The notes beneath the pieces were generated by a model that was not told the origin of the DNA, did not search any database, and saw nothing but the letters and a program-made list of their open reading frames with translations. A stretch of DNA of 64,000 bases from Candidatus Poribacteria bacterium (lineage in GTDB: Bacteria; Poribacteria; WGA-4E; PCPOR2b), in NCBI GenBank assembly GCA_965215015.1, contig OZ244042.1, positions 1,056,001-1,120,000 on the forward strand, in the 5' to 3' direction. Positions within the stretch are counted from its first letter, which is position 1. Each line of letters begins with the position of its first letter. A program made the translations under genes and the position numbers. Shown here one piece after another: positions 18,059-27,979 of this stretch.

Positions 18059-18117
18059 AACTTCTATCAGTGTAGATTCGCGTGATTAGCGGATTGGTGT
18101 TAGAAAAGGAGAGGCAG

Positions 18118-18840
18118 ATGAAAATCCTCGTCACCGGTGCCGCCGGGGCTGTTGGTACGGCGGTCGTGAAAGGGATGAAAGACCGGTATTCACTGCGTGG
18201 GTTTGACCGCGTACCAATGCCAAATATTGAAGATGCAATTGTCGGCGATGTCACTGACTTTGATGCTGTGCTCCAAGCCACTCAGGACACGGAGGCAGTG
18301 ATTCACCTCGCAGGCAACCCCTCCGGCGGCGCGCCGTGGGAAGATATTCTTCAGAATAACATTGTCGGCACTTACAATGTCTTTGAAGCGGCACGGCAAA
18401 ACGGTGTACGTCGCATTGCCTTCGCCAGCCGGGCCGGGCTGCTCGCGCCTTATCCAAAAGACATCATGCGGACGGTTGATATGATGCCTCGACCGGAGAC
18501 CTACTACTCAATCAGCAAGGTCTTTGGAGAGAATCTAGGCTATATGTACTCAGCCCGGTTTGATATGGAATTTGTCGCGGTCCGAATTGGCAATTTCAAG
18601 CGAGATCGCGACCTCCCCACACACCCCCATCAACTGAGCCATGGCGACGCGGCCCGCGTGTTCGAGCAGGCAGTTACTTCCCCCCTTTATCCTCCCGCTA
18701 GCGGAGGGAAAGGGGGGGCGAAATTTGAGGTTGTGTTCGGTGTTTCAGACAGTACATGGGCACTCTACGATCTGGAACATGGGCGGCAGGTCATCGACTA
18801 TCACCCACAGGATAAGTCGGACGCAGTACCGGAGGTTTGA
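18118..18840 (+). CDS. NAD-dependent epimerase/dehydratase (uronate dehydrogenase-like)
   Basis: TGAAGAVG, IHLAG, YSISK, RIG. Confidence 0.88.
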   Translation: MKILVTGAAGAVGTAVVKGMKDRYSLRGFDRVPMPNIEDAIVGDVTDFDAVLQATQDTEAVIHLAGNPSGGAPWEDILQNNIVGTYNVFEAARQNGVRRIAFASRAGLLAPYPKDIMRTVDMMPRPETYYSISKVFGENLGYMYSARFDMEFVAVRIGNFKRDRDLPTHPHQLSHGDAARVFEQAVTSPLYPPASGGKGGAKFEVVFGVSDSTWALYDLEHGRQVIDYHPQDKSDAVPEV

Positions 18841-18848
18841 GCAATAAC

Positions 18849-19175
18849 TTGTGAGCACAAAAAAGGGGTCCCCCGCATCACATGGGGAGACCGCTTTTCT
18901 TATTGGGACCGTGTTGCCTGGCTACTGTGCCGAGGATTCAGTCTTACCCGGCACCTCGCGGGCAGGCACCTTATTCTCCCCCTGCTTGCGGGGGGATATA
19001 GGGGGGTGCCGCTCAAATTGCCGGGCCGCTTCCGGATCCATCTCCCTGAAACGACGAAGTCCTTCCTCCGAACCGTATTGGTCTATCAACTGCGGTTCGT
19101 GTACATGCCCATCCTCGTGGTCGACATGTGCGGCATTGACCGGGGCGGACGGTGTCTCCGTTACGGGTGAGGCTT
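18849..19175 (-). repeat. Copy 1 of module repeat: terminator plus 3' remnant of the membrane-anchored partner gene
   Basis: Near-identical to 23388-23650 and 24833-25238; encodes ...LIDQYGSEKDFVVSGRWI/EMDPEAARQFERHPPISPRKQGENK remnant with a deletion and frameshift. Confidence 0.9.
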
Positions 19176-19520
19176 GTGTAGCAGCCCCGGATAGAATTAT
19201 CTACGCCGCCGGGGGCGAGGGCTGCGTATGCCCAGTTTCCTGTCAAAATAATCTTGAATTTGCTGTTGGGTGGGTGGTTTGAGATTATCATACCGATTTC
19301 CGTCAGGTTTCGTCCGTAAATGAGGGCTGACGAGGGTGTGCCATTTTTACGCAAGTCAGACGTAACGCGTTGTATCCGTGGCATAAAGGTAAGGAGACTT
19401 AGGATCGTCATGAATTATTGACAACGATTGTCAATTTCACTCAGATAATATGACAAACACAATAGATTGTCAAGTCTAAAAATATCAAATGCGTTACAAA
19501 GGAGTAGCTCATCCTGTTAT

Positions 19521-19691
19521 ATGAAAAAACTTTTTGAGTCCGGTGGTGACTTTGATGGTGGACTAGACTTTTACCCTCCCAACCCTTACGATTTCGAGCG
19601 CCCGAGCTGCCGGGGGTGTTTGGTGAATGCCATTAAATTGGTTATAATTTTATTTATCGTGTTTTTCGTCCTCTTTAAACTAATGCAGTGA
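19521..19691 (+). CDS. Small hypothetical membrane protein
   Basis: 56 aa, ...PSCRGCL then a hydrophobic C-terminus. Confidence 0.4.
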   Translation: MKKLFESGGDFDGGLDFYPPNPYDFERPSCRGCLVNAIKLVIILFIVFFVLFKLMQ

Positions 19692-19744
19692 CAGAATCAC
19701 TATTCAAATGAATCCCTAAATTTCAAAACAAAGGCGGTAAATTT

Positions 19745-20410
19745 ATGTCAACTCAACGACGTTTCACGATAGTGGTGGTGGCGGTTGTTATTCTTTTACT
19801 GGTTGGGATTAGCACTTTTTTAGTCTATGATAAGAATGCATCCATCCAAGAGGTAACGGTTTATGAATTGCCGGATTCCCATACGCCCAGTGTGGAATCT
19901 TCTCTTAGCACGACAGACATCATCGGGGCTATTACTACAGGTCAACGGGGGAGGATTTCTGATAACACCACAGAACAGTATTCTAGTGAATACGATCAAG
20001 GATATGAGGCTGCTGCTGCGCTGGGTGAAAGTACGATAGAACCGTGTTGTCCAGATGAGCTAGATCCTTTAGGTGATATGGATTCGGGGCAAGATACCAA
20101 CCTTGACCACAATCCTGTGTCCCCTGAAGTGATATCGGATGCTAGGCGTCATAATCTATGGTGGGAGGCTCAAAAAGAGCATCATGAAAAAGTGGTAGCA
20201 TCGAAAGAGAAAATGGATGAATTGATGGAGGATTTGAATTTGATTCTTGATGAGAATCGTGATTCGGATCAACTCCTTCGTAATTTGCGAGATCCTGTGT
20301 ATTGGGCGAAGGTGGAATCAACATTTGGTAAACTTGAGTTGTTGAAAAAACAGGATGATAAATTGGCAAAAGAATATCCAAGAAGTCTAACTAACCGCTA
20401 TGTAGATTAA
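19745..20410 (+). CDS. Hypothetical N-terminally membrane-anchored protein
   Basis: Basic N-terminus plus TM, acidic linker, EPCCP motif, helical C-terminus ending just before the recombinase remnant. Confidence 0.7.
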   Translation: MSTQRRFTIVVVAVVILLLVGISTFLVYDKNASIQEVTVYELPDSHTPSVESSLSTTDIIGAITTGQRGRISDNTTEQYSSEYDQGYEAAAALGESTIEPCCPDELDPLGDMDSGQDTNLDHNPVSPEVISDARRHNLWWEAQKEHHEKVVASKEKMDELMEDLNLILDENRDSDQLLRNLRDPVYWAKVESTFGKLELLKKQDDKLAKEYPRSLTNRYVD

Positions 20411-20423
20411 GGGAAAGGAGTTA

Positions 20424-20753
20424 AACGAGTCTGTGCACTTACCGAAGCAGATAAAACCACGACGAGGTTGAGGGATTCGGCCCTGATTCGACTGATGAAT
20501 GATTGCCTGTTACGAATCAGTGAAGGGGGCGCGGTAGATGCCGAGGATATCGATAGCGCATTGACAAGTGGAAGGCTTTATCTCTGGATACTCCCTTCGT
20601 GTTGGTTCCGCTGTAGCACTTGCCCAAGCAGGAACGTCCGTTGTAGATATGCAGGGTGCAGGACGATGGAAAGAATAGCGGCTGCCAGCGCATTACGCAC
20701 GGGCAGCATTGACAGAGTAAATCGCGATTGCACGCTTCAAATACAAAAAATGA
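20424..20753 (+). pseudogene. Tyrosine recombinase (Cre-like) remnant, deleted copy of 26460-27032
   Basis: LRDSALIRLMNDCLLRISE joined directly to GFISG.SLRVGS...RFKYKK; high DNA identity to the other copy. Confidence 0.88.
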
Positions 20754-20764
20754 TAGCTTCGACG

Positions 20765-21996: not shown

Positions 21997-22018
21997 TTTG
22001 ACTTTAGGAGACAGCAAA

Positions 22019-23374
22019 ATGTCAAACGTCGATGCAAAAAAAGCACTATTCCATCGCGATTTGAGTTACGATTATCCCCTAATAGTGCGCGGGGAAGGGA
22101 TCTACCTCTACGATGAAACAGGAAAAGGCTACATAGACGGTGCCGCGGGTGCAAGTAATGTGACCTTGGGACATGGCCGTCAACGTATCGCGGATGTAAT
22201 GGCAGAACAAGGCAAGACGCTCGCCTACTGCTTCGCCACCCATTTTACGACTCAACCCGCACTAGACTTAGCCGATCGGGTCGCCGCAATAGCCCCCGGC
22301 GACCTGAACCACGCCTATTTCGTTTCAGGCGGTTCAGAGGGGATTGAAACCGCGATCAAGATTGCCCGGCAGTACCATGTCCAGCGTGGGAAGGGACAGA
22401 AGCATCAAGTCATCGCCCGGTGGCGTGGCTACCACGGTGCGACGCTCGGGGCTTTGGGAGTCACAGGTACACCGGGGATGCGCGACCTTTTCGCACCCTT
22501 GCTTCCCCATTTCCCACACATCGCCCCTTGCTATCCATATCGCTGCGCGTTTGCGGGTTGTGAAGGAAAATGCAACCTGACCTGTGCCCATGAACTGGAG
22601 CAGATGATTTTGCAGACCGGGCCGGAGAATGTGGCGGCATTTGTGGCAGAACCTTTGGTGCTCGGAGGCGTTGCTGCGGCGATACCGCCCAAGGACTACT
22701 ATCCAGTCGTGCGTGAAATCTGCGATAAGTATGATGTCCTATTTATTGCGGATGAAATCATCACCGGTTTTGGGCGCAGCGGCAGATATTTCGCCATTGA
22801 GCACTGGGACGTCCTCCCGGATATGATTGTCTTTGGAAAGGCAGCGAGCAGCGGCTACGCCCCTTTGAGCGGTGTGATTATTCGGGATAGTATTCGTGAT
22901 ACCTTCGCAGCGGGCGGCACACCTTTCGCCCACGTCTTCACCTACGTCAATAATCCCATAGCCATGCGGGTTGGGTTGGAGGTGCTGGATATCATCGAAG
23001 AGGAAGGGATTCTTGAGCATACGACGCAGATGGGCGAGTATCTACTAAAAAAAGCAAGCGCGTTAGACGCCCATCCAAGCGTCGGTGAGATTCGGGGGCT
23101 CGGACTGATTCTCGGCATCGAGCTAGTACGTGACAAAGAGACGAAGGCACCCTTTCCCGCATCGCTTGGCTTTCACAAACGCCTCAACAAGATTCTACTG
23201 GATAAGGGCCTGTCCATAGGGAGTGCCGGCGGTACGGCAGATTGGAAGAACGGCGACGACCTGCGTTTTTATCCTCCGCTCATTATCACGCGCAGCCAAA
23301 TTGATGAAGTGATTGCCATCATCGATGAGGGTCTGGGACAATTGGAAGATGAGCTTTCGCGTCCCAACCGATGA
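22019..23374 (+). CDS. Class III PLP aminotransferase
   Basis: SGGSE, YHG, FIADEIITGFGRSG, FGK. Confidence 0.92.
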   Translation: MSNVDAKKALFHRDLSYDYPLIVRGEGIYLYDETGKGYIDGAAGASNVTLGHGRQRIADVMAEQGKTLAYCFATHFTTQPALDLADRVAAIAPGDLNHAYFVSGGSEGIETAIKIARQYHVQRGKGQKHQVIARWRGYHGATLGALGVTGTPGMRDLFAPLLPHFPHIAPCYPYRCAFAGCEGKCNLTCAHELEQMILQTGPENVAAFVAEPLVLGGVAAAIPPKDYYPVVREICDKYDVLFIADEIITGFGRSGRYFAIEHWDVLPDMIVFGKAASSGYAPLSGVIIRDSIRDTFAAGGTPFAHVFTYVNNPIAMRVGLEVLDIIEEEGILEHTTQMGEYLLKKASALDAHPSVGEIRGLGLILGIELVRDKETKAPFPASLGFHKRLNKILLDKGLSIGSAGGTADWKNGDDLRFYPPLIITRSQIDEVIAIIDEGLGQLEDELSRPNR

Positions 23375-23404
23375 CACCGGGATTCAAAAGGACATGTTGT
23401 GAAG

Positions 23405-23447
23405 CACAAAAAAGCGGTCCCCTGCATCACATGGGGAGACCGCTTTT
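23405..23447. terminator. Bidirectional intrinsic terminator inside the module repeat (also at ~18858-18898 and ~24850-24892)
   Basis: aaaaaagcggtcccc...ggggagaccgctttt hairpin between convergent genes. Confidence 0.75.
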
Positions 23448-23470
23448 CTTATTGAGACCGTGTTGCCGTG

Positions 23471-24484
23471 CTACTGTGTCGATGACTCAACCTCATCTGG
23501 CCTCTCACGGGCAGGCACCTTATTCTCCCCCTGCTTGCGGGGGGATATAGGGGGGTGCCGCTCAAATTGCCGGGCCGCTTCTGGATCCATCTCCCTGAAA
23601 CGGCGGAGCCCTTCCTCCGCACCGTATTGGTTAATTAACTGTTGTGCCTTCTCTTGTTGCTCTGGGGACATCCCCTCCCAGCCGCGCACTTCATGGCCTT
23701 CCACTGGTAGCGTTTCATGTACACGCTCAACCTCGTCAGTCCCGGGTGCTTTATCAACCGGGATTTTCGGCGCATTTATTACAGGGAAGACTCCAGAATC
23801 CGCAGGGGAATCCTCAAAGCTACCGGCTCCCGCAGCACTGTCGCTCCGCATCGGTGCAGGGAGCGGATCGACCCGGGCGTTTACAAACGAACTTGGAATT
23901 AAGCCCTCTGCGATTAACCTGCCCACATCTTCGATGGGGACATCATACATTGAACTCAAATGAATTTTATTTATGTACGAATCCGCAGTTTCCCCTTCTG
24001 GAACATCATACATTACCCCATCTATCAGCACCCTCGTCATAACAGGCCAAGCCTCGGGAGGAGGTACAAAGTCCCCAGGTTTAAGTTTTGAATGCCAATA
24101 TATCTTATGTACCTGCCCGTCAGGGCCTTCAATGAGCTGCGGCACCAAATCCTTCACATAATATGTTTCAGTACTCACAAGTTGGGCATCCCTATCGTCA
24201 TCCGGGTTCGACGACACCTGTGCATACTGGATCTTTACAGGCTTACCAGTCGCTGCGCTAAAAGGTTCTCCCTTAGGGGACTTCGAGGCAGCCGCTTGTA
24301 ATTGTTCCTCTTTATCAAGGGAATGTTGAGAAATCTTAGGGTCCAAAAATATCTTCCCAAACGCAACATGGTCTCTTAGTAATTCCCTTAATTCAAGGTG
24401 ATTTTTGTAAACCCAGTATCCTACGACAACAAGAAACAGCACCATCAATGCAACGGTGCAACGGAAAAAACGGCGATTAAACAT
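23471..24484 (-). CDS. Membrane-anchored hypothetical protein, module partner B
   Basis: MFNRRFF plus TM; C-terminus QQLINQYGAEEGLRRFREMDPEAARQFERHPPISPRKQGENKVPARERPDEVESSTQ. Confidence 0.85.
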   Translation of the reverse strand: MFNRRFFRCTVALMVLFLVVVGYWVYKNHLELRELLRDHVAFGKIFLDPKISQHSLDKEEQLQAAASKSPKGEPFSAATGKPVKIQYAQVSSNPDDDRDAQLVSTETYYVKDLVPQLIEGPDGQVHKIYWHSKLKPGDFVPPPEAWPVMTRVLIDGVMYDVPEGETADSYINKIHLSSMYDVPIEDVGRLIAEGLIPSSFVNARVDPLPAPMRSDSAAGAGSFEDSPADSGVFPVINAPKIPVDKAPGTDEVERVHETLPVEGHEVRGWEGMSPEQQEKAQQLINQYGAEEGLRRFREMDPEAARQFERHPPISPRKQGENKVPARERPDEVESSTQ

Positions 24485-24830
24485 GATAATCTCCTAAGAA
24501 ACGAATAAAGTGTTTGTCCATTCGGGCATACTTAGGGCCATTAGAGCAGTGGCTGTTATTACAACGGGTACCCCACATAATATCAGTCCAATCGCCGGTA
24601 AAGGTTCTCCAGAACTTCCACTCTGAAAACCCAGTCGACTTCCAAGCCCCATTACGGTACACCTGATAGTTGTATCTTTTGTTGACGGTATAGGTGTACT
24701 TGTAACGCCAACCGGATATAATGCCTGAACTACACGCGTGGCAAGACTTAGCATAACTCTTAATGTCGTATGATTGAACTGAGAATTGCACTTCCGGAAT
24801 CGTGCGAGTATCACCTTCGCTTGGACCGTT
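24477..24830 (-). pseudogene. Small Cys-containing aromatic/basic peptide gene B, apparently 5'-truncated
   Basis: Frame open to 24830: NGPSEGDTRTIPEVQF...SCHAC...RCNNSHC...; stop overlaps the partner ATG; begins right at the repeat edge. Confidence 0.6.
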
Positions 24831-24915
24831 TTAAGGACATGTTGTGAAGCACAAAAAAGCGGGCCCCTACATCACATGGAGCGACCGCTTTTCTTATTGA
24901 GACCGTGTTGCCTTG

Positions 24916-26040
24916 CTACTGTGTCGATGACTCAACCTCATCTGGCCTCTCACGGGCAGGCTTCTTATTCTCCCCCTGCTTGCGGGGGGATATAGGGGGG
25001 TGCCGCTCAAATTGCCGGGCCGCTTCTGGATCCATCTCCCTGAAACGGCGGAGCCCTTCCTCCGAACCGTATTGGTCAATCAACTGTTGTGCCGTATTAA
25101 AACGCTCTGACGATAACCGTTCCTTGAGTTGCGTTTCAAGGCTTTCAACGACTGGCGGTTCGTGTACATGCCCATCCTCGTGGTGGACGTGTGCGGCATT
25201 GACCGGGGCGGACGGTGTCTCCGTTACGGGTGAGGCTTCGGAACGGACAGGCACCTCACCGCGCTCCCTCGCAGAAACAGGGACTGTTGCATCACTAATC
25301 TGTTGCTGATACTCGCCCTCGCCGGTGGATGTCTGTTTCCCACGGTTGATGAGGTGCCCCTCGCCCCTTACCTCAAGAAACGCGTTAATCATCCTTTCAT
25401 CCTCTGGTGTTAGAGATGCAGATTCTATTATAAGCTCCCCTGACGCTAGACGCCGTTCAAGTTCTTCTATTGAGATTCCCAGTGTTTTAGCGTCAATTAA
25501 TTTCTCAACGTACGCCTCTCTCTCTGTTTCAGAGATATAATCGGGGATCTCTGAAGCTTCTATAGTATGCCAACCTTCCATTGGATTCTCTAGAATATTA
25601 TCTTCTCGTATAGGAAGTGGCGGGGGGATAGCATCCCCCTTTTTGAGCAGCTTGTCAGGCGTTGTGTACACTACCCGGACGGTGCCATCAGGGGTTTCAA
25701 CGAATTGTGGCACCAGCGGTTGCCCCTCACCGCGGATGACAGGGTAGCCTTTGGGGGACGGTTCACCGATTTCGCTCGCTTCTGCATACTGTACCCGCAC
25801 CGGCAGTTGGTCTAATAGATTGGGCACGTCATTCTCACGATTTTCACCCGCACGTCTCGAATTCCTTTCTGCTATGTGAGAGGCATCTTTATTAAGCCCC
25901 TCCTGAAACGCCTTAGATTCCGAGATAAAACGCTTAAACTGGCTATGATTTTGGTAAGCTCTATAGCCTACATAACAGAGGGAAATTAACGTAACAGTAC
26001 AAACACCAACAATATAGGGACTGAAACGACGTCTAAACAT
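24916..26040 (-). CDS. Membrane-anchored hypothetical protein, module partner A (paralog of 23471-24484)
   Basis: AAGGAGG RBS, MFRRRFS plus TM; shared PVxxQYA, LVPQ..E.PDG.V, GD..PPP motifs and near-identical C-terminus. Confidence 0.85.
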   Translation of the reverse strand: MFRRRFSPYIVGVCTVTLISLCYVGYRAYQNHSQFKRFISESKAFQEGLNKDASHIAERNSRRAGENRENDVPNLLDQLPVRVQYAEASEIGEPSPKGYPVIRGEGQPLVPQFVETPDGTVRVVYTTPDKLLKKGDAIPPPLPIREDNILENPMEGWHTIEASEIPDYISETEREAYVEKLIDAKTLGISIEELERRLASGELIIESASLTPEDERMINAFLEVRGEGHLINRGKQTSTGEGEYQQQISDATVPVSARERGEVPVRSEASPVTETPSAPVNAAHVHHEDGHVHEPPVVESLETQLKERLSSERFNTAQQLIDQYGSEEGLRRFREMDPEAARQFERHPPISPRKQGENKKPARERPDEVESSTQ

Positions 26041-26144
26041 CAGATTGACCTCCTTAGCTATAAAAAAATAACCGTTTTTTGGACAACCCATTTACCAGAT
26101 ATTACACAGAATCTCTGGCAATCAACATGCCAACAATATAGGTT

Positions 26145-26178
26145 CAGTAGGGACAGGTTGGAAATCCGGCCCCTACTG
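26145..26178. repeat. GTAG-type REP hairpin
   Basis: cagtagggacaggttggaaatccggcccctactg. Confidence 0.65.
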
Positions 26179-26206
26179 AAAATCGCCCAACACGGTGTGG
26201 ATAGAC

Positions 26207-26458
26207 TTACCCGCCATTGAGACCTGGACAGGAAAGACCATGAACGCTACAGATATAGCGATAACTATTCGTTCTTACGATGCGCCTGCTCACCTCTCTG
26301 GTTGAGACATTTCTCCAGTGGGGATTGCCATTTTCATGGTAATAATAAACGCGTACCTGTTTATAGCGAGTGTAGATTCTCCATTTTTCTTCGACTTTTA
26401 CGCTACCACCGCTACCGTTAGGGCATGAACCCCCATTATAGCTATAAAAGGTCCAAAC
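26207..26458 (-). pseudogene. Small Cys-containing aromatic/basic peptide gene A, 5'-truncated (absent from ORF track)
   Basis: Manual translation: VWTFYSYNGGSCPNGSGGSVKVEEKWRIYTRYKQVRVYYYHENGNPHWRNVSTREVSRRIVRTNSYRYICSVHGLSCPGLNGG*; no start codon at the 5' end. Confidence 0.55.
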
Positions 26459-26459
26459 T

Positions 26460-27032
26460 CAGGTGGATGGCATAACCTGGGACGAGGTAGAACGAGTCTG
26501 TGCACTTGCCGAAGTGGATAAAACCACAACAGGGTTAAGGGATTCGGCACTGATTCGACTGATGAGTGATTGCCTGTTACGAATCAGTGAAGGGGTCGCG
26601 GTAGATGCCGAGGATATCGATAGCGTGTTGACCATTCATCAATCAAAGACTGACCACGAATGGGAAGGTACAACGCTGTATGTTGGCGATCCCACACGGG
26701 AGGTGATAAATCGGTATTGTGAAGCAGGAAACATCACCTCAGGCCCCCTCTTTCGGCGGATTCGTCGGGGGGACAATATAACCCACAGCAGACTGAGTGT
26801 AGGCGGTGCAAGAAACGCTATTAAGTGCCGGGCACGCGCAGCGGGTGTGGAAGGCTTTATCTCTGGTCACTCCCTTCGTGTTGGTTCCGCTGTAGCACTT
26901 GCCCAAGCGGGAGCGTCCGTTGTAGATACGCAGGTTGCAGGCCGATGGAAAGAATCGCGGATGCCAGCGTGTTACGCACGGGCAGAATTGACAGACCAAA
27001 CCGCGATTGCACGCTTCAAATACAAAAAATGA
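26460..27032 (+). mobile_element. Cre-like tyrosine recombinase catalytic domain (N-terminally truncated)
   Basis: LLRISE (R), SKTD (K), GHSLRVG (H-x-x-R), GRW, CY (Y); core-binding domain absent. Confidence 0.88.
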
Positions 27033-27238
27033 TAACATCACGCGCAGCCAAATTGACGAGGTGATCATCATCATCTATGAAGGTCTGGGACGATTGAAAG
27101 ACAAGCTAAAGCGCGAAGGACTGGGGAAAATAGAACGCAAAGTTCCAGAGTCACAAAGGAAAGTTTTTTAATATTTTCGCAGCAGCCCAAACTTTGCGTC
27201 TTTGCACCCTTGCGTTCTATTTTTCTTGCTGCGCGTCC

Positions 27239-27979
27239 TTACCCGAATAGTGGGTTAGTTGTCCCGAATGCGTCTACTGCCGTCCCCGTAACCGCTGAAC
27301 TCATATCTGAGGCTAGGAAAACCGCGAGTGCTGCAATCTCTTCGGGCAGCATCAACTTCGGATTCTCTTCCCTGCCCCCGCTCCCGAATGCCTCGCGAAA
27401 ACCTTCCGTGTCAACCCCGCCGGGGCAGATGCAATTGACATCAATGCCGTGCTGCTTGACCTCGGCTGCGACGCTTTCCGTTAGACTGATCAGCGCGGCT
27501 TTGGTTACCCGATAGGCGGTACGACCCTTGCCCCCTTTTCGCCCACCAATGCTTGAGATGTTGATGATTTTCCCATATCGGTTTTCAATCATACTCGGCA
27601 GCGCGAACTTTGTGAGCAACGCAGCGGCGGTTAGGTTCACATCCATGACCTGCCTCCACAGATTAGCGTCCAAGTCCACCAGATCTATGGGCGGGTGGAT
27701 GATGGCAGCGTTGTTGACCAAGATATCAATCCCTCCAAACTTCGCGGTCGTTTCATCTACGATGCGTCGGATGTCTCGCTCAACGCTTAAATCTGCTGTC
27801 ACCGCTAATCCCATCGAGCCTGCCTCCTTGACCTGACCAACAACCGTTTCAATCGCCTCCGTCGTGCGAGCAGTAGCAACGACGTTAGCACCTTCCCGAC
27901 CGAATGCGAGTGCAATCGCTCTTCCAATCCCTTGGCTCGCACCGGTGACAATGGCAGTTCTATTCTCAAGTTGTCCCAT
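27239..27979 (-). CDS. SDR family oxidoreductase
   Basis: TGASQGIG, NNAA, YRVTK. Confidence 0.92.
   Translation of the reverse strand: MGQLENRTAIVTGASQGIGRAIALAFGREGANVVATARTTEAIETVVGQVKEAGSMGLAVTADLSVERDIRRIVDETTAKFGGIDILVNNAAIIHPPIDLVDLDANLWRQVMDVNLTAAALLTKFALPSMIENRYGKIINISSIGGRKGGKGRTAYRVTKAALISLTESVAAEVKQHGIDVNCICPGGVDTEGFREAFGSGGREENPKLMLPEEIAALAVFLASDMSSAVTGTAVDAFGTTNPLFG

Follow-up and report, generated by a model that had tools for sequence, protein, structure and literature searches.

A probable recombinase-edged island, now decayed, with two hypervariable two-gene operons in a Candidatus Poribacteria genome

The locus and related systems

Orphan toxin-immunity modules, like those of contact-dependent growth inhibition (CDI; cdiA-CT/cdiI) and of Rhs, are tandem variable two-gene modules in which the first gene is truncated at its 5' end and the second is intact. 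An arrangement of similar outline is found at positions 23388-27032 of a 64,000-nucleotide (nt) stretch of contig OZ244042.1 (positions 1,056,001-1,120,000; assembly GCA_965215015.1, Candidatus Poribacteria), hereafter the window, whose numbering is used unless a genome position is indicated. The explanation that we favour, and judge to be probable, is that this segment is a decayed island edged by a Cre-like tyrosine recombinase and carrying two copies of a conserved, hypervariable operon, which encodes a small cysteine protein and its membrane-anchored partner. As to the anatomy of the array and its decay, we are nearly certain.

The likeness to the orphan CDI and Rhs modules extends to short conserved segments that allow recombinational swapping and to variable parts that diverge fast and together; unlike them, the Poribacteria modules lack both a large delivery protein as recombination partner and any recognisable toxin domain, and their intact loci encode a complete small Sec-exported protein together with a large anchored partner that ends in a constant C-terminal domain. 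Sedentary chromosomal integrons (IntI, attI, attC) offer a second comparison, with a tyrosine recombinase divergent from a variable array of uniform orientation and an array content that differs between genomes at a conserved site. Here, however, the recombinase is Cre-like and not IntI, each module consists of two genes with a leader and a terminator of its own, a module can be present without the recombinase, and attC-like sites were not seen in a search that used no dedicated attC model. The islets formed by tyrosine integrases in the 3' ends of genes resemble the locus in having an integrase at the edge, a repeat of the target 3' end at both borders, a target open reading frame (ORF) that stays open, and no counterpart in close relatives; they differ in that the target here codes for a protein and not for a tRNA, the repeat, of 71 nt, is long and has only 85% identity, and the element, of 3.7 kb, is inactivated. 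With phage P1 Cre, finally, the alignment takes in the catalytic motifs LLRI(S/A)E, GHS(L/A)R(V/I)G and G(R/G)W together with the tyrosine, but the similarity is low and no 13-8-13 lox-like site stands at the element borders, the only four such palindromes of the genome being located elsewhere. No published description of the families or of the array was found in the literature, as judged by titles and the openings of abstracts; both families are taken here as new, and the architecture as a variant of small integrated islets and polymorphic two-gene cassettes. The features of the segment and its flanks are as follows.

21998-23374, plus strand: class-III aminotransferase gene (PF00202, E 5.7e-95), whose 3' end is the insertion target
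23285-23355, no strand: left copy of a 71-nt direct repeat, the functional 3' end of the aminotransferase ORF, from an alignment with 11 orthologous loci
23388-23736, minus strand: copy B of the constant 3' repeat, with the terminator and the last ~60-90 codons of partner B
23408-23449, minus strand: intrinsic-terminator-like hairpin with U-run after partner B (-22.9 kcal/mol, z -3.3, equalled by 0 of 200 shuffles)
23471-24484, minus strand: partner B, intact, 337 amino acids, single-pass membrane-anchored, with a conserved C-terminal helical domain
23518-23566, no strand: G/C-rich interspersed repeat in frame in partner B, encoding PPISPRKQGEN; the same repeat lies in partner A at 24966-25011
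24477-24830, minus strand: small cysteine protein B, a 117-codon frame truncated at its 5' end, with the mature domain intact and the signal peptide gone
24833-25181, minus strand: copy A of the constant 3' repeat, including the terminator hairpin 24853-24894
24916-26040, minus strand: partner A, intact, 374 amino acids, membrane-anchored, modelled with AlphaFold2
26207-26458, minus strand: remnant of small cysteine protein A, an 83-codon stop-to-stop frame with no usable start
26463-27032, plus strand: Cre-like tyrosine recombinase fragment, catalytic domain only, about residues 124-322 of a 324-residue paralogue
27037-27107, no strand: right copy of the repeat at 23285-23355, left over from the 3' end of the aminotransferase gene and continuous with native downstream DNA
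27239-27979: short-chain dehydrogenase/reductase (SDR) gene, the native downstream neighbour, which follows the aminotransferase directly in 11 congeneric loci

Along the minus strand the order is cysteine frame A, partner A, a hairpin with a U-run, cysteine frame B, partner B and a second hairpin with a U-run. The constant 3' repeat consists of the last ~60 partner codons followed by the GC-rich hairpin and the U-run, and its two copies are identical in 90% of positions over 300 nt (direct repeat 23388-23687 and 24833-25132), or in 87% over 349 nt by blastn. Two tandem modules with a constant 3' repeat and a divergent recombinase fragment had been described in an earlier note on this DNA, and all of these were recovered as ORFs and repeats. 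The note had also treated peptides A and B as genes; both cysteine frames are indeed present, but each is truncated at its 5' end and neither is a complete gene. It did not include the bracketing repeat of 71 nt, nor the third constant repeat (18849-19175) and the other recombinase fragment (20411-20755). A 32-nt inverted repeat (27127-27158 and 27192-27223, 81% complementary, 33 nt apart) lies between the aminotransferase relic and the SDR gene.

Insertion into the aminotransferase gene and decay

The entire 3.7-kb segment is bracketed by the 71-nt direct repeat (23285-23355 and 27037-27107), the left copy of which continues the aminotransferase gene while the right copy runs into native downstream DNA. 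Orthologues of the aminotransferase are found in 17 congeners, with 91-95% amino acid identity, and homology to them ends at 23355-23357. In all 11 congeneric orthologous loci the SDR gene follows the aminotransferase directly, and nothing similar to 23356-27036 was found in these loci, compared with their 1.5-kb flanks. Flanking direct repeats, an integrase at the edge and absence from relatives, by which integrated islets are recognised, all occur at 23356-27036, which is a lineage-specific, now degenerate insertion at the aminotransferase 3' end. The att-like duplication of 71 nt points to the recombinase as the agent that would once have integrated the island.

A second island, at 18849-20755, contains the following features.

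18849-19175, minus strand: third constant repeat, on a partner-A-like 3' fragment that has lost 68-69 nt, at the left end of the second island
19712-20410, plus strand: ORF of a different membrane-anchored protein (ATG at 19745)
20411-20755, plus strand: second recombinase fragment, with a 214-nt internal deletion, frame breaks and stops

Both islands end alike, being bounded at one edge by a partner terminator and at the opposite edge by the recombinase stop codon, and the second recombinase fragment has 91-92% DNA identity to 26491-26632 and 26847-27034 of the first. The stretch 18850-20750 is also missing from the same 11 congeneric loci; no flanking repeat was found around 18849-20755, which is a second, older and more decayed copy of the island. 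Its ORF at 19712-20410 resembles, judged by reading and unscored, the gene beside another recombinase fragment at genome position 2858865.

Neither small gene of the window retains its 5' end. The frame of peptide A breaks off at its junction with the recombinase fragment and has no ATG, GTG or TTG start before its last 23 codons. In peptide B the first start is a GTG at 24791. All 9 aligned homologues of peptide B possess a signal peptide of ~30 residues that peptide B lacks; these signal peptides are of the AXA type and end in VHS, VYA or VYS just before a conserved G-D-x-R, and it is exactly at the position of this motif that the frame of peptide B starts, the stop upstream of it being 3 nt from the end of the constant repeat of partner A. 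The recombinase fragment 26463-27032 matches PF00589 (E 2e-14, 54.1 bits with a cut-off of 27.1), and neither of the two window copies is a complete two-domain recombinase, the first lacking ~123 N-terminal residues. Both partners, in turn, align end to end with relatives, partner B over its full length with 7 of them and with no frameshift.

Since the small genes are without their 5' ends and the recombinase is without its N-terminal half, the array of the window reads as a fossil, and the same arrangement recurs among assembled contigs. Contigs of runs from four studies were aligned to 22800-27400; the junction between terminator A and truncated peptide B is bridged in all four runs, that between peptide A and the recombinase fragment in runs X1 and X5, and the contigs differ from the window at 0-9 positions per piece. 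The array is a fixed fossil in which both partner genes are still open, and the working cassette system that had been proposed for the window does not hold there, with both peptides and the recombinase truncated and contigs from 4 studies showing the same truncated arrangement. No excision joints were found in the contigs of the four studies, in which rare rearranged forms are invisible. Most contig joints that could have passed for rearrangements were rejected as such, since they stem from paralogous sequence in the second island and at genome position ~5395 kb. One contig of run X6, from another study, joins 26459 to 27221 and omits the recombinase fragment together with the relic copy of the 71-nt repeat and about 110 nt of the native spacer; it would represent an indel at the strain level, with a left border exactly at the junction of peptide A and the recombinase.

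The two-gene operon and its variable core

While the window copy is a fossil, its value lies in the family to which it led. The pairing of a partner gene with an upstream cysteine peptide, as put forward in the earlier note, is borne out by the 29 external loci with a full-length partner: the upstream cysteine protein is intact at 20 of them (ORFs of 124-174 codons bearing a signal peptide), disrupted or a remnant at 4 (L029, L034, L063 and L064) and absent from 5 (L022, L028, L032, L037 and L039). Upstream ORFs were assessed for location on the same strand, an N-terminal hydrophobic segment and cysteines, and this tally combines reading by eye with the scripted criteria; the script alone gave 22 loci all three points, two of them being the L063 remnant and a fused ORF in L029. 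The small protein and its partner form a conserved operon. Furthermore, the two genes co-diverge, as the co-phylogeny check proposed for cognate pairs revealed: over 24 pairs, a set that excludes loci without an intact small gene, the Spearman coefficient is 0.31 (reached by 0 of 2000 permutations) and nearest neighbours agree between small protein and partner in 17 of 24 cases.

The family appears to be confined to one phylum. Candidatus Poribacteria is the sole organism name attached to any of the 125 partner homologues, and all 49 confirmed external loci, from GTDB contigs with one genome per species (185,579 species genomes), belong to metagenome-assembled genomes of Poribacteria. The partner profile is matched by 38 of 61 sampled genomes of the phylum; in this sample full-length matches occur only in the family of the window, the C-terminal domain alone being found elsewhere, and the window genome has 32 partner-family matches against at most 15 in any other. 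The C-terminal domain (QLIDQYGTEEGLRRLRE-DPEAARQFE) occurs at about 24 loci of this genome, on proteins with differing N-terminal regions. The peptide-B subtype is rare, with only 9 matches at E 0.001 or better among 1.84 billion representative proteins, and a word-based homologue search with peptide B gave no candidate. A search with partner A gave one weak match in 19 congeneric genomes, and a scan of metagenome contigs gave 186 pattern stretches, 0 of which were confirmed, so that no close locus with an intact peptide A was obtained; the ESM Atlas held no usable match for partner A or for an intact peptide. An unannotated two-gene family is thereby defined that is found only in Poribacteria, uncultured sponge symbionts with few known interaction factors.

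Between partners A and B, the first ~250 aligned codons have an identity of 0.33-0.40 at third positions and the final ~60 codons one of 0.90-1.00; purifying selection alone would not produce such a jump, which indicates recent gene conversion or exchange, in line with the idea of the earlier note that modules are homogenised through the constant repeat. Comparison between genomes, which the note had also suggested, shows a core that differs at an orthologous site whose leader, 3' end and flanks are conserved. The site gfo-fadox-(recombinase)-module-endoIII recurs in L024, L033 and L058. L024 and L033 share the flank plus recombinase (85%), a leader of ~85 nt (91%), the 3' end (76%) and the far flank, and have no DNA similarity in the small gene and the N-terminal two thirds of the partner; the module of L033 is of the peptide-B/partner-B type, which is seen at other sites in L021 and in the window, and L058 is a mosaic with respect to both L024 and L033. 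In L041 there are two modules in tandem, both with a 5' repeat of 352 nt (94%) and a 3' repeat of 277 nt (81%) at their borders. Recombinational exchange of cassettes is very likely, and with the same high probability the core of the module evolves very fast and is exchanged whole between loci and genomes through recombination in the conserved 5' leader and 3' end. The family has the signature of a conflict or recognition locus: the core is hypervariable, the flanks in which recombination takes place are conserved, alleles are replaced at fixed sites and truncated orphans occur.

Other elements recur with the family. A third family of small anchored proteins (start M..KQK..Y, about 170 amino acids) stands beside several peptide/partner modules (genome 5433421-5433936 and 2383390-2383908; L040:6801-7238). 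In many members of the partner family a histidine-rich motif (HVHHEDGHVH) directly precedes the constant C-terminal domain; in partner A the histidine-rich stretch lies at 25160-25200 (AHVHHEDGHVHE), and the motif may be a metal-binding site. The G/C-rich repeat of ~33 nt (core CCCCCTGCTTGCGGGGGGAT) has at least 220 copies in the genome with up to 2 mismatches in the 20-nt core, often in tandem clusters (e.g., genome 174827-175259) and in frame within coding genes. The gene 18076-18840 contains, at about 18681-18718, a palindrome of similar G/C-rich make-up that reads PLYPPASGGKGG, and this stretch is 30-31 nt longer than in 7 congeners.

The recombinase, the protein pair and alternative explanations

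For a full-length paralogue of the recombinase in the same genome, the best solved relatives are structures of Cre (E 5e-7; PDB 1crx, 7rhz and others), while the NCBIfam scan listed none but Xer-type models, which scored well under their cut-offs (71.7 bits at best, with 220 required). The association of modules with recombinases, another claim of the earlier note, is an enrichment: of 18 tblastn recombinase matches in the window genome (full copies and fragments), 7 lie within 5 kb of partner-family genes, against 0.9 expected (the 5-kb windows cover 4.9% of the genome), and a recombinase is present within 5 kb at 6 of 24 partner loci in this genome and at 7 of 49 external loci, where it is always upstream and divergent. 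The window genome has 14 recombinase copies, and congener genomes have 0-6 each.

In the explanation favoured here, the cargo of the island is two tandem copies of the Poribacteria-restricted operon beside the Cre-like recombinase. The first gene would give a Sec-exported protein of ~120 residues with four cysteines and a beta-ribbon fold, and the second a single-pass anchored protein composed of a small variable domain, a long disordered linker and the constant C-terminal helical domain; in module B, where the stop of peptide B overlaps the ATG of partner B (ATGTTTAA), the partner would be translationally coupled to the small gene. Peptide B (10 sequences, mean predicted local distance difference test, pLDDT, 79) is predicted as a very long beta-hairpin (8-30 and 36-59) with two short strands, and inspection of the model places a CxxC at the hairpin tip. 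Partner A (AlphaFold2, 24 sequences, mean pLDDT 60.7) is modelled with a transmembrane helix at 7-31 and a following helix, a small region of a hairpin plus helices, a disordered stretch at 228-300 and a confident helical C-terminal domain at 301-346 (pLDDT about 90). With the partner, a profile search of the PDB gave nothing better than E 0.38, and Foldseek with the partner A model no match with an E of 0.001 or better.

The small protein and the variable domain of the partner may bind each other in the periplasm as a cognate pair, a proposal that we hold tentatively and put slightly short of an even balance. A complex prediction, of the kind that the earlier note had called for, gave 0.57 for partner B (30-337) with peptide B (6-117) (runs 0.50, 0.57 and 0.71), and the best of 3 controls gave 0.00. 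Of 80 solved complexes, 58 reach the mark used, as do 2 of 110 mismatched pairs, and those that reach it at 0.60 or under comprise only 7 of the 80 solved complexes and both mismatches; the partner had a pLDDT of at least 66, and the contacts agreed between runs to at least 0%. This prediction weakly supports binding. In its simplest form the pair would be a secreted effector with a protective or receptor partner, and an effector-immunity role, suggested by analogy, is possible but rather doubtful.

Several points weigh against the favoured explanation. The two 71-nt copies share derived bases relative to all 11 relatives, so that a duplication within the lineage fits better than a foreign attachment (att) copy carried in by an element, and no att or lox-like core or other shared site was found at the module borders. 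Co-divergence is expected of any two linked genes. Neither protein matches Pfam, NCBIfam, PHROGs or PADLOC, that is, no known family, toxin fold or defence model, and the membrane topology of the partner is deduced solely from flanking charges, which are nearly balanced. The partner has 340-450 amino acids and its constant C-terminal domain is common to many other anchored proteins, which makes it unlike typical small immunity proteins. Moreover, 42 of the 49 external loci have no recombinase nearby, and at one orthologous site the recombinase is a separable indel of ~1 kb; for both reasons it may be a bystander.

If so, the recombinase of ~1 kb would be a selfish single-gene element preferring sites upstream of these operons, and the modules would be ordinary fast-evolving paralogues that move only by homologous recombination and duplication, an alternative that we consider unlikely. 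It would account for the near-precise presence or absence of the recombinase alone, since L024, L033 and L058 all have the module and L058 lacks ~1 kb that in the other two holds hardly anything beyond the recombinase ORF; for the solitary recombinase copies found between housekeeping genes; and for the DNA homology between recombinase copies, which stops at the ORF borders. It does not sit well with the two window islands, of the same architecture (partner 3' end to recombinase 3' end) and both absent from relatives, which imply that module and recombinase arrived together at least twice, nor with the 71-nt repeat that brackets one of them, nor with the joint expansion of the recombinase and partner families in the window genome (14 and 32 matches, where relatives have no more than 6 and 15). 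The surroundings of 8 further recombinase copies, each compared with itself, showed no consistent flanking repeats. As an observation in its own right, the difference between L024:3370-4365 and L058:4328-4408 (also seen with L033) suggests a minimal single-gene mobile element or a near-precise deletion; if active, so small a Cre-like element would be of interest for the biology of mobile elements and as a source of new site-specific recombinases.

Less likely again is that the pair belongs to the structure of the envelope, with the small beta-ribbon protein as a structural or adhesive subunit of the surface or periplasm and the partner as its membrane tether, whose C-terminal domain would dock a common envelope component, variation being driven by recognition by phage or host. 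The misfit of partner size and shared C-terminal domain with a simple immunity protein keeps this reading in view, and the elongated predicted ribbon agrees with it, as do the transmembrane anchor, the long disordered linker and the constant terminal domain found at 24 loci with differing N-terminal regions. The best structural rows from VIA-align are G5 domains of surface proteins (Z 5.2, root-mean-square deviation 7.0, 71 aligned), but they are weak, lack a Pfam G5 match and, at Z under 8, may reflect merely a common arrangement; Foldseek gave as its best, likewise weak, match the Clostridium perfringens enterotoxin (E 0.15). No sorting signal or known adhesin family was matched, and a truncated small gene beside an intact partner is easier to explain if the partner is valuable alone.

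An integron-like system, in which the Cre-like recombinase would capture, excise and reorder modules at leader or post-terminator sites as an analogue of integrons without IntI, is improbable, even though the recombinase is upstream and divergent in 7 of 7 linked external loci, as in the window, L041 has tandem modules directly beside it whose 5' and 3' boundaries are repeated, differing modules occupy the same site beside orthologous recombinases in L024 and L033, and a palindromic leader motif (GGAATGC-N-GCATTCC) also precedes a solitary recombinase gene: no integron-integrase model was among the NCBIfam matches of the full-length paralogue, only generic Xer models far below cut-offs, the conserved GC-rich hairpins with U-runs at module 3' ends read as plain terminators, the leader motif also stands before unrelated small-protein operons, the module persists without the recombinase in L058 and the recombinase is missing near most external loci, the module borders of the window cut into genes and have no common site, and the contigs, in which rare forms are not visible, hold no excision joints. 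Equally doubtful is cassette capture independent of an integron integrase, with the ~1-kb Cre-like element docking at the conserved leaders of the operons and mobilising or stacking hypervariable modules; if the cassette-capture reading were true, the arrays would be a bank of competition or recognition specificities in sponge symbionts.

Two candidate sites for recombination were examined and set aside. A lox-like palindrome, ACATTCATG-N7-CATGAATGT, was dropped, having 4 copies in the genome and 0 in the window, with half-sites that are not enriched (28 and 20 found against 22.7 expected). These four palindromes have variable spacers (genome 2380218, 2384098, 2384880 and 1631782); the palindrome was noticed near another recombinase island, and three of the four lie within one recombinase-linked island at genome 2380-2385 kb. 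The leader motif CCTAACGGAATGC, with 14 matches at up to 1 mismatch against about 7 expected, was rejected as an att site because several copies precede unrelated small-protein genes, and its occurrence before unrelated small-protein operons with no recombinase nearby leads us to read it as a promoter or operator. The corresponding conserved palindrome, (C/T)C(T/C)AACGGAATGCCAAAGCATTCC, a candidate promoter or operator, precedes the start codons of several operons for small secreted proteins by about 25-60 nt and a solitary recombinase gene by about 375 nt; its sites include genome 51543, 909744, 917393, 4971842, 5471163 and 5682846 and the leaders of L024, L033, L041 and L022.

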